Shown: one piece after another, positions 847 through 49,415 of the stretch
Numbering within the stretch: position 1 is the stretch's first letter
Layout of the letters: every line of letters begins with the position of its first letter
Sequence record: MK509462
Direction: 5' to 3' (one strand)
DNA: 64,000 nt
Source: Shigella phage MK-13
Program-made: the position numbers and the translations under genes
Notes under the pieces: generated by a model
Databases searched by the model: none
The model's input: only the letters and a program-made list of their open reading frames with translations
Told to the model about the DNA's origin: nothing

Positions 847-2178
847 ATGACCATCATGGCTAAGAAACTTGTTACTGAACAAATGCGCGAGCAGTGGCTG
901 CCAGTTCTTCAGAAAGAATCTGAAAGTATCCAGCCGCTTTCTGCCGAAAACGTTGCTGTCCGCCTGCTGCAAAACCAGGCTGAGTGGAACGCCAAAAACC
1001 TGGGCGAATCTGACGCTCCTGGTTCTGTGAACAACTCTGTGGGCAAATGGCAGCCAGTCCTGATCGACATGGCAAAACGTCTGGCTCCGATCAACATCGC
1101 GATGGACTTCTTCGGCGTACAGCCGCTGTCTGGTCCTGACGGTCAGATCTTTGCTCTGCGTGCTCGCCAGGGCGTCGGCGACTCATCCAACACCCAACAG
1201 TCCCGTAAAGAACTGTTCATGCAGGAAGCTGATTCCGGCTACTCTGGTGACGGTACTGTACAGGCTGGCGATCCATCTGGCTTTACTCAGGCCGAGATCG
1301 AAGGTTCCGGCGCTGGCGTGACCACCATCGGTAAAGGCATGCCAACCACCGACGCTGAACTGCTGGGCACCACCACCAACCCATGGGCGCGTGTTGGTAT
1401 CACCGTTCAGAAAGCAACCGTGACTGCGAAGTCTCGTGGCCTGTACGCTGACTACAGCCATGAACTGCGCCAGGACATGATGGCGATCCACGGCGAAGAC
1501 GTTGACAGCATCCTGTCCGACGTGATGGTAACTGAAATTCAGGCGGAAATGAACCGTGAGTTCATCCGTACCATGAACTTCAGTGCAGTACGCTTCAAAA
1601 AATTCGGCGCAAACGGCGTTGTAGACATCTCCACCGACATCTCCGGTCGTTGGGCGCTGGAAAAATGGAAGTACATGACTTTCATGCTGGAAGTTGAAGC
1701 GAACGGCATCGGTGTTGACACCCGTCGTGGTAAAGGCAACCGTGTTCTGTGTTCTCCGAACGTAGCATCCGCTCTGGCAATGTCCGGCATGCTGGATTAC
1801 GCTCCGGCGCTGCAGGAAAACACCAAGCTGGCGATCGACCCAACTGGCCAGACCTTCGCTGGTGTTCTGTCTAACGGTATGCGTGTCTACATCGACCCGT
1901 ATGCAGTAGCAGAGTACATCACCCTGGCATACAAAGGCGCGACCGCGCTGGATGCTGGTATCTTCTTCGCGCCGTATGTGCCGCTGGAAATGTACCGCAC
2001 CCAGGGTGAAACCACCTTCAGCCCACGTATGGCGTTCAAAACTCGTTACGGCATCTGCGCGAACCCATTCGTACAGATCCCAGCGAACCAGGACCCACAG
2101 GTTTACGTGACTGCCGATGGTATCGCTCAGGACAGCAACCCTTACTTCCGTAAAGGTCTGATCAAAGGTCTGTTCTAA
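847..2178 (+). CDS. major capsid protein, T4 gp23-like
   Basis: N-terminus MTI..., blocks FFGVQPLSGPDGQIFALRA and NPW...KSRGL...ELRQD...EIQAEMNRE match T4 gp23; highly biased codon usage; alternative start at 856 has better RBS spacing. Confidence 0.85.
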   Translation: MTIMAKKLVTEQMREQWLPVLQKESESIQPLSAENVAVRLLQNQAEWNAKNLGESDAPGSVNNSVGKWQPVLIDMAKRLAPINIAMDFFGVQPLSGPDGQIFALRARQGVGDSSNTQQSRKELFMQEADSGYSGDGTVQAGDPSGFTQAEIEGSGAGVTTIGKGMPTTDAELLGTTTNPWARVGITVQKATVTAKSRGLYADYSHELRQDMMAIHGEDVDSILSDVMVTEIQAEMNREFIRTMNFSAVRFKKFGANGVVDISTDISGRWALEKWKYMTFMLEVEANGIGVDTRRGKGNRVLCSPNVASALAMSGMLDYAPALQENTKLAIDPTGQTFAGVLSNGMRVYIDPYAVAEYITLAYKGATALDAGIFFAPYVPLEMYRTQGETTFSPRMAFKTRYGICANPFVQIPANQDPQVYVTADGIAQDSNPYFRKGLIKGLF

Positions 2179-4195: not shown

Positions 4196-4224
4196 GTTTA
4201 CTTCTTCAATAAACCCCGTATACT
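4196..4224 (+). promoter_or_regulatory. T4-type early promoter (-35 GTTTAC, 17-nt spacer, -10 TATACT) embedded in stem-loop
   Basis: acggggTTTACttcttcaataaaccccgTATACT; hairpin spans the -35 (PeSL-like cassette). Confidence 0.5.
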
Positions 4225-4273
4225 TCATTCCATAAGCAGCACAACACTGACTCTGAAATGAAGGAAATACATC

Positions 4274-25749: not shown

Positions 25750-25779
25750 GTTTACTTCCTCTAAGGAATATCCTATTAT
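25750..25779 (+). promoter_or_regulatory. T4-type early promoter (-35 GTTTAC, -10 TATTAT)
   Basis: GTTTAC, 18-nt spacer, TATTAT directly after terminator. Confidence 0.45.
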
Positions 25780-31075: not shown

Positions 31076-31354
31076 ATGAATCGTACTGAATTTGTTGCCC
31101 ACATTGCTTCGACCCAGAACATCACCAAAGGCGAAGCGGAGAAAGTAGTGGCATCCTTTATCGACGGCGTTAAAACTGCAGTTGCTGCAGGTGCGTCTGT
31201 ACAGCTGGTCGGCTTCGGCGCGTTCGAAGTGAAGCACCAGGAAGCTCGTGAAGGTCGTAACCCTCTGAACGGCCAGACCATTCAGATCGAAGCGAAAAAC
31301 GTTGTGAAATTCAAAGTGGGCGAAGGTCTGAAGAACGCTGCCAACGGCAAGTAA
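31076..31354 (+). CDS. HU/IHF-family DNA-binding protein
   Basis: Near full-length match to bacterial HU: MNRTEF...VQLVGFGAFEVKHQEAREGRNPLNGQTIQIEA. Confidence 0.85.
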   Translation: MNRTEFVAHIASTQNITKGEAEKVVASFIDGVKTAVAAGASVQLVGFGAFEVKHQEAREGRNPLNGQTIQIEAKNVVKFKVGEGLKNAANGK

Positions 31355-41156: not shown

Positions 41157-41177
41157 AAAAGGGGCTTTCGCCCCTTT
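41157..41177 (+). terminator. terminator hairpin of promoter cassette
   Basis: aaaaggggctttcgccccttt. Confidence 0.6.
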
Positions 41178-41203
41178 ACTTCTTCAATATCCTTCCCTAT
41201 ACT
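41175..41203 (+). promoter_or_regulatory. T4-type early promoter (-35 TTTACT, 17 nt, -10 TATACT)
   Basis: Same cassette as 4196..4224; downstream leader is near-identical. Confidence 0.5.
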
Positions 41204-41251
41204 TCATTCCATAAGCAGTACGACACCAACTTGAAACGAAGGAACTATATC

Positions 41252-43770: not shown

Positions 43771-43778
43771 TATAAATA
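43771..43778 (+). promoter_or_regulatory. T4-type late promoter motif TATAAATA
   Basis: Exact TATAAATA 26 nt upstream of internal head protein gene start, after a terminator hairpin. Confidence 0.55.
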
Positions 43779-43803: not shown

Positions 43804-44373
43804 ATGAAACCGTTCCTTCAATACTTTAAAGAACAAGCTGCTCAGCCTCAGACCCATGCTGGTGTCCAGGGCAAAAGCGTATCCATCACCAAGCAAGCTG
43901 ACGGCACTCAGTGGTGCTCCGGTGCTACCGTGACCCAGATCACTCCTGACAATCAGGCGGATGTCTACAACCTGGAGTTAACCAACGGCAACACCATCAA
44001 GGTGAAGCTGACCCCAGACCAGACTCACGGTATCTCCCAAGGTCAGGAAGTCGTTGCTGTCCATGACGGCTTCGAATTCTTCTTTGGCAAGTCTGCCGAC
44101 AAAGGCCAGGTGACCGAAGCCTACGCTCAGGAACTGGCGAACATGGACAAGATGATCGGTAAAGCACTGGGTGTTGGCAAGTCTCGCAAGAGTGGTCGCA
44201 CTGAGTTCGAATACTCTGGCATCCCTGGCATCGGCAAGGCGATCACCGTGAACTTCGGTGGTGAAGATGACCCGTATGTGATCGTCACCTGCAACGGCAA
44301 GGAGCAGGATATCAGCAAGGGTAAAAACCTGGCTGCTGACATTGCCAAGTTCCTCGGCGTTAAGCCTGTGTAG
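43804..44373 (+). CDS. internal head protein-like (capsid targeting sequence)
   Basis: N-terminus MKPFLQYFKE fits CTS and prohead-protease L/I-x-E cleavage pattern; late promoter upstream. Confidence 0.6.
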   Translation: MKPFLQYFKEQAAQPQTHAGVQGKSVSITKQADGTQWCSGATVTQITPDNQADVYNLELTNGNTIKVKLTPDQTHGISQGQEVVAVHDGFEFFFGKSADKGQVTEAYAQELANMDKMIGKALGVGKSRKSGRTEFEYSGIPGIGKAITVNFGGEDDPYVIVTCNGKEQDISKGKNLAADIAKFLGVKPV

Positions 44374-48156: not shown

Positions 48157-48249
48157 AACTTTTTACTTCACATCACCTCCCTCCAGGCCTCGTCGAATGA
48201 GGCCTTTTAAAATACTTCAAAATTATTTTAAAAATTTATTGAAAAAGAC

Positions 48250-48278
48250 TTTACTCTTCAATAATGATGCACTATTAT
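48250..48278 (+). promoter_or_regulatory. T4-type early promoter (-35 TTTACT, 17 nt, -10 TATTAT) with AT-rich upstream element
   Basis: ctTTACTcttcaataatgatgcacTATTAT preceded by a 40-nt A/T tract. Confidence 0.5.
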
Positions 48279-48351
48279 AGTTCACATAGGGCGGCAACAC
48301 ACCGCCGAATGAAAAGTGAAACGAACCAACTACATTATGAGGAATTACATC

Positions 48352-48840
48352 ATGGCTACTACCAAAACTCTGATCACCAACGGCACCATCTCTTTCGAAC
48401 TGAACACCGAAGTTGCTAAAGTTGAAATGTTCCGCATCGCTCAGGCAGCTGGCTTCACTGGTGGCAAAACTTCCTTCATGAACCTGCTGAACGGCAAAGT
48501 AAAAGCGACCAACGGCTTCACCCTGGTAGAGCAGGTTGTGGTTGACAAAGCTGTGGTTGCTAAGACCGCCGACAAAGTTGGCATGCTGAAAGACCTGGGT
48601 CACGACATCCACGTTGTCGAAGCGAACACCGAAACTTACGGCACCATCGTAGTCGGTAAAGGTCGCATCCAGCTGAACCCACTGAACAACGGTTCCTTCT
48701 CTGTGATGGTCTTCCCTAAGAAAGGCTACGCAAACGAAGACATCGTGAAAGCGGCTGGTGGTGAAGCAAAAGCTCAGTACGTCAAAATGGGTAAACTGGC
48801 CGCCAAAGACGTTCAGACCCTAGTGAGCAAACTGGCTTAA
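48352..48840 (+). CDS. hypothetical protein (162 aa), probably abundantly expressed
   Basis: Strongly biased codon choice similar to capsid gene; strong promoter and terminator flank it. Confidence 0.55.
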   Translation: MATTKTLITNGTISFELNTEVAKVEMFRIAQAAGFTGGKTSFMNLLNGKVKATNGFTLVEQVVVDKAVVAKTADKVGMLKDLGHDIHVVEANTETYGTIVVGKGRIQLNPLNNGSFSVMVFPKKGYANEDIVKAAGGEAKAQYVKMGKLAAKDVQTLVSKLA

Positions 48841-48894
48841 TCGAAAGGGGGAGGAAACTCCCCTCCTTATTCAGATTTTTGGTGGGAGACCATT

Positions 48895-49083
48895 ATGTCC
48901 CGCGCTGTCATCCAAGCCTCTTCAGGCGCTCTCTGGGTTGCCGACCGCATTCCGAACAAAGTCTTCCCTCAGTTCCAAGAGGAACTCGAGCAGGCGATGC
49001 TGGCAGTCCTTGAAAAATACGGGTACGACGTCGAAGTTCGTACGTCCTTCAGAGAAGTTATGCCAGTGGTGGTAACAAGATGA
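48895..49083 (+). CDS. hypothetical protein (62 aa)
   Basis: ORF with GGTGGGAGA RBS. Confidence 0.35.
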   Translation: MSRAVIQASSGALWVADRIPNKVFPQFQEELEQAMLAVLEKYGYDVEVRTSFREVMPVVVTR

Positions 49084-49415
49084 AACTAACAAAACAAGAG
49101 GCTTTGGCCATAACAGAGCCAGGTAAACCAGAAGGCACTCCAAAGAATAACTTGGAATTGTCAAGATTGGCTCTGTATGAACTCAAAATTTCTTTGGGCC
49201 AGGTGGACTGGGAAATACTCAGAAACATAGAAGGCGCAGACATCAAAATGTGTCGTAAGTCGTTTTTGATGACCTACCATCAGTATGAGAAACTTTGGTC
49301 GGCGAAAATCATCGGGTGGGATTCATTAGAAGGGCGTGGCAAATCGGCTCCGGAAGCGTACATCAGTTTGCGCAAGAAGGTGGAATTTATGGCAACGCTG
49401 CTCAAAGAAATGTAG
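49080..49415 (+). CDS. hypothetical protein (111 aa)
   Basis: ATGA-overlapped ORF. Confidence 0.4.
   Translation: MKLTKQEALAITEPGKPEGTPKNNLELSRLALYELKISLGQVDWEILRNIEGADIKMCRKSFLMTYHQYEKLWSAKIIGWDSLEGRGKSAPEAYISLRKKVEFMATLLKEM

Follow-up and report, generated by a model that had tools for sequence, protein, structure and literature searches.

A single-gene expression cassette was identified in Shigella phage MK-13 (sequence record MK509462), in a 64,000-nucleotide (nt) stretch of DNA, hereafter the window, that belongs to an Agtrevirus (Ackermannviridae) genome. The gene of this cassette, an open reading frame (ORF) of 162 amino acids (aa) at 48352..48840 on the + strand, is an uncharacterized non-virion gene and the most expression-optimized gene of the region. 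The cassette occurs family-wide, and the encoded protein contains two predicted domains that match no known fold at the available sensitivity. These points are new; the ORF itself was already known in databases as a hypothetical protein, and its expression signals are of ordinary kinds. The 162-aa protein is tentatively interpreted as an abundant, pre-late nucleic-acid-binding protein for host takeover or DNA architecture, and this interpretation is given a probability of about 0.35.

Codon usage and conservation of the cassette

The codon adaptation index (CAI), computed with the Sharp-Li values for E. coli, is 0.72 for the 162-aa ORF, with an effective number of codons (ENC) of 30.0. This ORF ranks first among the 85 ORFs of the window, which have a median CAI of 0.34. 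The gp23 capsid gene (847..2178) has a CAI of 0.70 and an ENC of 33.1. The CAI values of the genes encoding the scaffold, an HU-like protein, the sliding clamp and gp32 are 0.63, 0.62, 0.56 and 0.50, respectively. The homologue of the 162-aa ORF also has the top CAI among its neighbours in all six other loci for which the index was computed. For example, it reaches 0.66 in the Klebsiella phage locus, whereas the neighbours have values of 0.10-0.43, and in Vibrio phage VPALA it reaches 0.40 against 0.20-0.28. The HU-like gene (31076..31354, + strand; PF00216, E = 6e-30) is among the most biased genes of the window, and it may be the counterpart of SPO1 TF1 in a phage with DNA derived from hydroxymethyluracil.

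Homologous loci were compared in Klebsiella phage 0507-KN2-1, Serratia phage 2050H1, Erwinia-type phages, three Vibrio phages and two metagenomic lineages. In each of these loci, intergenic gaps isolate the homologue on both sides and a -35/-10 pair lies upstream of it, usually preceded by an A/T tract and a hairpin. The neighbouring genes vary by lineage and include primase and endolysin, rIIB, baseplate genes, clamp loader and RegA, or topoisomerase. The conserved element is the unit of promoter, gene and hairpin, and not the gene context. The homologue lies mostly among genes of replication and nucleotide metabolism; in Vibrio phage VPALA it follows baseplate genes. The gene is syntenic among the enterobacterial members, and every matching Ackermannviridae-type genome carries it (352 records). 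The hosts of the matching phages are Salmonella, Escherichia, Klebsiella, Dickeya, Serratia, Erwinia, Vibrio and Aeromonas, and one relative is a Pseudomonas phage.

Promoter and upstream region

A scan identified a sigma-70-type promoter at 48250..48278 (+ strand), composed of TTTACT (48250-48255), a 17-nt spacer and TATTAT (48273-48278). It is preceded by an A/T-rich tract (48206..48249, + strand) that is a candidate UP element on the basis of its composition and conservation. The 25 nt before the -35 hexamer are 88% A/T, the richest value among the nine sigma-70-like sites of the window. A 9/12 match to the consensus is by itself not above chance, since two sites were found in 5 kb where 3.7 are expected from shuffled sequences. 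The promoter is credible because of its position (a 195-nt intergenic gap, immediately following a hairpin), the A/T tract and its conservation. The tract is nearly invariant in Agtrevirus, Kuttervirus, Limestonevirus and Taipeivirus. The TTTACT/TATTAT promoter is kept in Klebsiella, Serratia and Erwinia phages, and analogous -35/-10 pairs are present in the Vibrio and Pseudomonas-type relatives. From the A/T tract to the ATG, the identity to the Klebsiella Taipeivirus phages is 85-88%, compared with 76% for the coding sequence and 69% for the protein. The sequence 5' of the upstream hairpin is unrelated to that of the same phages.

The upstream hairpin (48185..48205, + strand), read from the sequence, has the stem AGGCCTC/GAGGCCT around the loop gtcgaat and is followed by TTT. 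Among relatives the stem is invariant and the loop variable. In the annotation of phage LIMEstone1, a factor-independent terminator is placed where this hairpin sits. The probable role of the hairpin is to terminate or attenuate transcription from the primase unit and to insulate the cassette.

The early promoters of T4 have a multi-element build of UP, -35, TGn and -10 elements (PMC2988021). The promoter of the 162-aa ORF resembles them in its A/T-rich upstream tract, -35-like hexamer, 17-nt spacer and 5/6 match at -10. It differs in the absence of the TGn extended -10 element, in a -35 hexamer that matches TTGACA at only four of six positions, and in a conserved TTCAATA box in the spacer, which is common to other promoters of the phage. 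The hexamers of a sigma-70-type promoter, at a spacing within the usual 16-18 nt, and the A/T-rich upstream tract are both present.

A promoter class of the form TTTACT-N17-TAT(A/T)(C/A)T is repeated in at least six copies in the window, one of them the promoter of the 162-aa ORF. Some copies share the TTCAATA spacer box and a common leader start. Further copies are located at 4197-4245 and 41175-41225 and also at 25751, 27964 and 55518. Between the -35 hexamer and about +20, the 4197 and 41175 copies have nearly the same sequence (TTTACTTCTTCAATA...TATACTTCATTCCATAAGCAG), and a GC hairpin precedes each of them. This repeated class may represent an unrecognized early or middle promoter class of ViI-like phages.

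Leader, translation start and 3' hairpin

The predicted 5' leader is about 67 nt long (48285..48351, + strand), its start being deduced from the position of the -10 hexamer. It consists of a hairpin formed by GGCGG (48290-48294) and CCGCC (48302-48306), an A-rich unstructured stretch and the ribosome-binding site GAGGA (48339-48343), which lies eight nt before the ATG of the 162-aa ORF. The hairpin (48290-48306) starts about 5 nt past the presumed transcription start. Its stem is invariant and its loop measures 7-11 nt; compensatory changes are seen in none of four pairs and the folding z-score is only -1.6, so that the leader hairpin is plausible but unproven. The leader is better conserved between genera than the coding sequence, at the identities given above. 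A 5' hairpin followed by an A-rich unstructured leader recalls autoregulated phage mRNAs such as that of T4 gene 32, although covariation is absent here. No Rfam family was matched in the region.

The coding sequence begins with the ATG at 48352. In the closest GenBank record, the annotation of gp83 of Shigella phage vB_SboS_Gloob, the protein begins at an upstream GTG (48316) and has 174 aa. The ATG start is favoured because the alignment of homologues begins there, the sequence preceding it diverges and the ribosome-binding site fits.

A 3' hairpin (GGGGGAG-GAAA-CTCCCCT, 48847..48864, + strand) with a free energy of -13.6 kcal/mol was found by scanning and folding. Stable GC hairpins (-13.6 to -27 kcal/mol) occur within about 10 nt past the stop codon in eight of nine lineages. 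Their stems differ wholly by lineage (GGGGGAG/CTCCCCC, CCGGGG/CCCCGG, GGGGG/CCCCC, GAGCCC/GGGCTC and longer ones), which argues that a structure has been selected and not a sequence inherited. The tail of the hairpin, TCCTTATTC, is a weak U-tract, and a canonical T-run follows the hairpin only in one metagenomic relative (locus L033, of the Pseudomonas-phage-type branch). The 3' hairpin would act as a partial terminator, as a stabilizer of the mRNA 3' end, or as both. Two small ORFs (48895..49083 and 49080..49415, + strand) lie past the hairpin and have no recognizable promoter of their own. Their expression would need read-through of the 3' hairpin, which suggests that the hairpin is an attenuator fixing a high-to-low ratio of expression.

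The earlier note on this DNA, made from its letters alone, had described a stand-alone 162-aa ORF with a codon bias like that of the capsid gene, driven by a strong promoter with an A/T tract and flanked by hairpins. This description holds. The ORF is present, its codon bias is at the level of the capsid gene, and the cassette sits in its own gaps and recurs alone across the compared lineages. The promoter elements are present, A/T-rich upstream and conserved, their strength being deduced from these features. Hairpins flank the gene on both sides, and the leader hairpin is a third one that had not been described.

Timing of expression and absence from virions

No T4-type late motif is present in the upstream gap, and the only two in the window are at 43771 (+ strand) and 34009 (- strand). 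The sigma-70-type build of the promoter together with the missing late motif favours recognition by the unmodified host polymerase, either early or both early and middle. Judged from these signals, expression of the 162-aa ORF would be early. On the + strand, TATAAATA occurs only at 43771, 33 nt before a 189-aa ORF (43804..44373, + strand) that belongs to phrog_4048, has a CAI of 0.55 and gives a weak TOBE-like match. This 189-aa ORF probably encodes a late, abundant, particle-associated protein.

The homologue of the 162-aa protein in LIMEstone1 (ORF073) is absent from the 39 virion proteins of that phage confirmed by mass spectrometry. Another homologue, Sajous1 gp1, is 94% identical to the 162-aa protein and is absent from the published virion table of its phage, in which trace endolysin, a gp32-like protein and glutaredoxin are present. 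The 162-aa protein is thus not a detected component of the virion in two published virion proteomes. A minor structural protein had been named in the earlier note as one case that would overturn its proposal, and these two proteomes speak against that case.

The proposal of an abundant early protein can be kept in part. An abundant, pre-late product is supported by the codon bias, the sigma-70-type promoter, the absence of a late motif and the two virion proteomes, whereas a choice of early over middle is countered by LIMEstone1, where the label is middle.

Protein family and homologues

The 162-aa protein matches phrog_3764 over its full length (E = 1.8e-91, residues 1-162 on profile positions 1-162), a family without assigned function. 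It is annotated as hypothetical in 352 of 352 matching phage records, and the cluster members are annotated likewise, as is an identical protein recorded for Shigella phage MK-13. A profile search of 1.84 billion representative proteins returned no more than 37 clusters, and several of these are false positives. The genuine members are encoded by genomes of Ackermannviridae size, from phages of enterobacteria, Vibrio, Aeromonas and Pseudomonas. Long matches to the profile (1,768-1,884 aa, and one of 398 aa) are unrelated multi-domain proteins and were rejected. No paralogue was found in the window by hmmsearch with filters off. No close relative was found in 185,579 bacterial and archaeal species genomes with short conserved peptide patterns, a search that catches close relatives only.

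No significant match to the 162-aa protein was found in Pfam, NCBIfam or PADLOC. PADLOC was also run on five family members and gave no match; no dedicated anti-defence library was searched. The HU/IHF family PF00216 has no Pfam match in the 162-aa protein and is represented in the window by the separate gene at 31076..31354. Sequence searches of the PDB, whether started from the single protein or from two family profiles, returned nothing above noise (ribosomal P0, E = 0.08; FeoB P-loop, E = 0.1). In BFVD, a database of predicted viral structures, the significant matches were uncharacterized family members only. Three other uncharacterized Ackermannviridae proteins in BFVD, A0A4P2WVS1 (EspM4VN, 222 aa), A0A3G2YSC0 (Serratia phage 3M, 310 aa) and A0A2P1JU58 (Bue1, 476 aa), have a domain of about 85 residues in common with the 162-aa protein (Foldseek probability 0.89-0.99, E = 0.06-0.23).

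Predicted structure and conserved residues

Structure prediction, which the earlier note had proposed as a check, yielded a two-domain model and no significant fold match. The AlphaFold2 model of the whole protein has a predicted local distance difference test (pLDDT) score of 82, with low confidence at aa 64-72. The N-domain (aa 1-64, 48352-48543), the linker (aa 65-74) and the basic C-domain (aa 75-162, 48574-48837) were delimited from the predicted structure. The N-domain modelled alone has a pLDDT of 87.5 and a predicted template modelling score (pTM) of 0.70, and its predicted order is strand-strand-helix-helix-strand. The predicted order of the C-domain is helix, four strands, helix, strand, helix. 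Distant relatives carry much longer inserts rich in Ala, Pro and Glu (from about 50 to more than 100 residues) exactly at the linker, which supports two independently folding modules on a tether.

Among 34 diverse members, the C-domain is basic in most (isoelectric point about 9, net charge mostly +2 to +7), and the charge of the N-domain varies. The positions conserved in the family are G34, G38, K/R39, T40, S41, L45, G48, K49 and G55 in the N-domain and Y96, T98, R105, Q107, G114, K124, K140, Q142, Y143 and K145 in the C-domain. In the model, the N-domain presents a glycine-rich loop that runs into the N-terminus of a helix, and the C-domain a set of Arg, Lys, Tyr and Gln residues on a beta-sheet. 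These would be surfaces of the kind that bind phosphates and bases.

Residues 33-40 (AGFTGGKT) match the Walker A motif, [AG]x4GK[ST], which explains the weak matches to FeoB and to ABC-ATPases. A P-loop NTPase was rejected. The motif lies between two helices (residues 23-33 and 39-47) of a 64-aa domain, the topology is wrong for such an enzyme, in which strand, loop and helix would follow one another in a domain of at least about 150 aa with a Walker B motif as well, and the matches are far under the family cut-offs (18.6 bits vs 450). The segment of aa 33-56 (48448..48519; AGFTGGKTSFMNLLNGK...NGF) looks like the P-loop and helix of FeoB-type GTPases on the one hand and like a conserved stretch of ribosomal protein P0/uL10 on the other (E = 0.08-0.1), and the predicted fold backs neither resemblance.

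Proposed function

In the proposed mechanism, the host sigma-70 RNA polymerase would start at TTTACT-17-TATTAT from the onset of infection, aided by the A/T tract, and the hairpins at the 5' and 3' ends of the mRNA would slow its decay. The good ribosome-binding site and the best-adapted codons of the window would lead to a rapid and large accumulation of the protein before and during replication. The cassette would thus be an insulated single-gene unit of high output. Its product would be a cytoplasmic, non-virion, basic protein in which a flexible linker of variable length connects two small alpha/beta domains. Nucleic acid would be bound stoichiometrically through a face of the basic C-domain (Y96, T98, R105, Q107, K124, K140, Q142, Y143 and K145). 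A second candidate surface is formed by the glycine-rich loop and helix N-terminus of the N-domain (G34, G38, K/R39, T40 and S41), and the tethered N-domain may add a further contact, to nucleic acid, to itself or to a partner. The protein would serve as an architectural or host-takeover protein in a lineage without homologues of T4 MotA, AsiA, Alt and ModA. The basic C-domain and its conserved Arg, Lys and Tyr residues lean towards nucleic acid or nucleotide binding. We infer the timing, the abundance, the stabilization of the mRNA and the ligand from sequence and predicted structure.

Several points weigh against this interpretation. The protein carries a modest net charge (+6), and some of its relatives are, taken as a whole, neutral or acidic. 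A small-nucleotide ligand would be equally compatible with the conserved Arg, Lys and Tyr residues and the glycine-rich loop. Pfam, NCBIfam and PDB sequence searches revealed no family or fold that binds nucleic acid. In the PDB, the best Foldseek match of the full model was ArgR/AhrC (E = 0.38) and that of the N-domain was AcrVA3 (E = 1.2). A winged-helix or MerR/Xis-type helix-turn-helix (HTH) N-domain was considered and rejected: Pfam scans of 34 members gave no HTH family at E<=1, the 50 best PDB Foldseek matches of the N-domain contain no winged helix, and the resemblance to the HTH_17 consensus is unsupported. Among the phage's own products there are already an abundant HU-like protein and a homologue of gp32. 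The 162-aa protein is 69% identical to that of the Klebsiella phage, compared with 75-86% for the enzymes encoded by its neighbours; this somewhat faster divergence fits a protein that touches host components. As for timing, the authors of the LIMEstone1 study labelled the orthologous site a "putative middle promoter", and a literature search turned up neither a transcriptome nor a proteome of infected cells for any Ackermannviridae member, and no mention of the protein.

DNA binding, host shut-off and a sponge for defence signals had all been suggested for the gene. The basic C-domain and the Arg, Lys and Tyr set favour ligands of the nucleic acid or nucleotide kind, and evidence from homology or fold selects none of the three roles.

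The alternative that survives best, although unlikely, is a factor that binds the host RNA polymerase or ribosome and redirects transcription or translation, like T4 Alc, AsiA/MotA or T7 Gp2. One domain would dock on the host machine and the other would give specificity. MotA, AsiA, Alt and ModA are all missing from ViI-like phages, and the control of early and middle genes in these phages is not understood (CBA120 paper, PMC3184105), yet they must switch programmes. The early-type promoter and the universal presence of the gene in the family are consistent with such a factor, and two tethered domains are adaptor-like, as in MotA. The best TM-score outside the family comes from a predicted Alc structure in BFVD (TMq 0.39, 112 columns, probability 0.82, E = 0.42), and T4 Alc itself can be aligned colinearly. 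However, the profile-profile probability is below 1% for Alc and 0.13% for T4 MotB, codon optimization at the level of a capsid gene is not needed for binding a polymerase, and the sequence points to no partner.

Less probable is an anti-defence role, in which the protein would be a sponge for nucleotide immune signals or would inhibit a host defence protein stoichiometrically. The protein is small and predicted to be early and abundant, and its glycine-rich loop with Lys, Thr and Ser and its conserved Arg, Lys and Tyr residues suit nucleotide binding. The top Foldseek matches of the N-domain include AcrVA3, AcrIF7 and Had1, but only at E = 1.2-9, which is not significant. Known counter-defence genes are usually accessory and patchy, whereas this gene is a core gene in 352 of 352 matching records across many host genera, a status that argues against a host-specific anti-defence role. 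Two domains with a long flexible linker are also unlike the known sponges, which are compact and oligomeric.

The least probable alternative is a non-virion helper of morphogenesis (a chaperone or scaffold-like assembly factor), for which a CAI like that of the capsid and scaffold genes, an absence from virions as for chaperones and a weak fold likeness of the C-domain to SycE/SycH-type secretion chaperones (E = 0.75-2, TMt 0.3-0.4) can be cited, but the fold matches are not significant, the promoter is of the sigma-70 type with an A/T-rich tract, the upstream gap lacks a late motif, and the usual neighbours are the replication and nucleotide-metabolism genes, with VPALA and its baseplate genes as the other case.

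An abundant, pre-late nucleic-acid-binding protein remains the preferred interpretation. In a bolder reading, which is improbable as a whole, the protein would be the missing early factor for takeover or programme switching. It would be a new fold that tells thymine DNA from hypermodified DNA derived from hydroxymethyluracil, or that binds its own leader RNA, and would shut down host templates or organize the phage chromosome like T4 Alc or SPO1 TF1.

Comparison with characterized phage proteins

T4 MotB has the same length as the protein studied here (162 aa). It is an early, non-virion, basic protein of a T4-related myovirus that binds DNA non-specifically and improves phage fitness. Homology between the two was rejected, as the hhalign probability is 0.13% and the predicted domain folds differ.

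T4 Alc (PF17527) is of similar size (167 aa), is made early by a phage whose DNA is modified, and terminates transcription on unmodified DNA. A colinear C-terminal resemblance (an NPL..G motif and the terminal helix) accompanies the weak BFVD match. Homology was again rejected: the hhalign probability is 0.27% with T4 Alc and 0.64% with an alignment of 17 Alc sequences, there is no Pfam match, and the resemblance is treated as chance.

Drc (gp14) of the N4-like phage LUZ7 is a basic orphan single-stranded DNA-binding protein that acts in the early-to-middle switch; its fold has no match in the PDB, and it binds DNA through Tyr, Arg and Lys residues of a beta-sheet (PMC7145618). Like the 162-aa protein it is a basic phage orphan, and it illustrates a possible outcome for that protein. 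No sequence or fold relationship between the two was found, and Drc is not among the 50 best PDB matches of either Foldseek search. Drc also differs in working with a phage-encoded RNA polymerase, of which none is known in Ackermannviridae.

Genomic neighbourhood

The genes along the window are arranged in the order primase, a 68-aa ORF, the 162-aa ORF, the two small ORFs, endolysin, PhoH and NrdA. A 1.6-kb region around the gene is 99.1% identical to Shigella phage vB_SboS_Gloob. The same region matches 269 phage records, mostly Ackermannviridae-type phages of Salmonella, Klebsiella, Escherichia, Dickeya and other hosts.

Significance

Phages of the Ackermannviridae (ViI, CBA120, LIMEstone, Kuttervirus and others) find wide use in biocontrol and therapy. 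The most codon-optimized gene of the 64-kb stretch is non-structural and uncharacterized. The gain would be modest if the 162-aa protein turned out to be an ordinary DNA coat. The unit of promoter, leader and terminator would offer a ready-made strong expression cassette for the engineering of these phages. Host takeover and early/middle timing in Ackermannviridae are not understood, and the T4 regulators are missing (PMC3184105). For this family, the 162-aa protein is a well-defined and cheap first target for biochemistry, and it may possibly represent a new nucleic-acid-binding fold.

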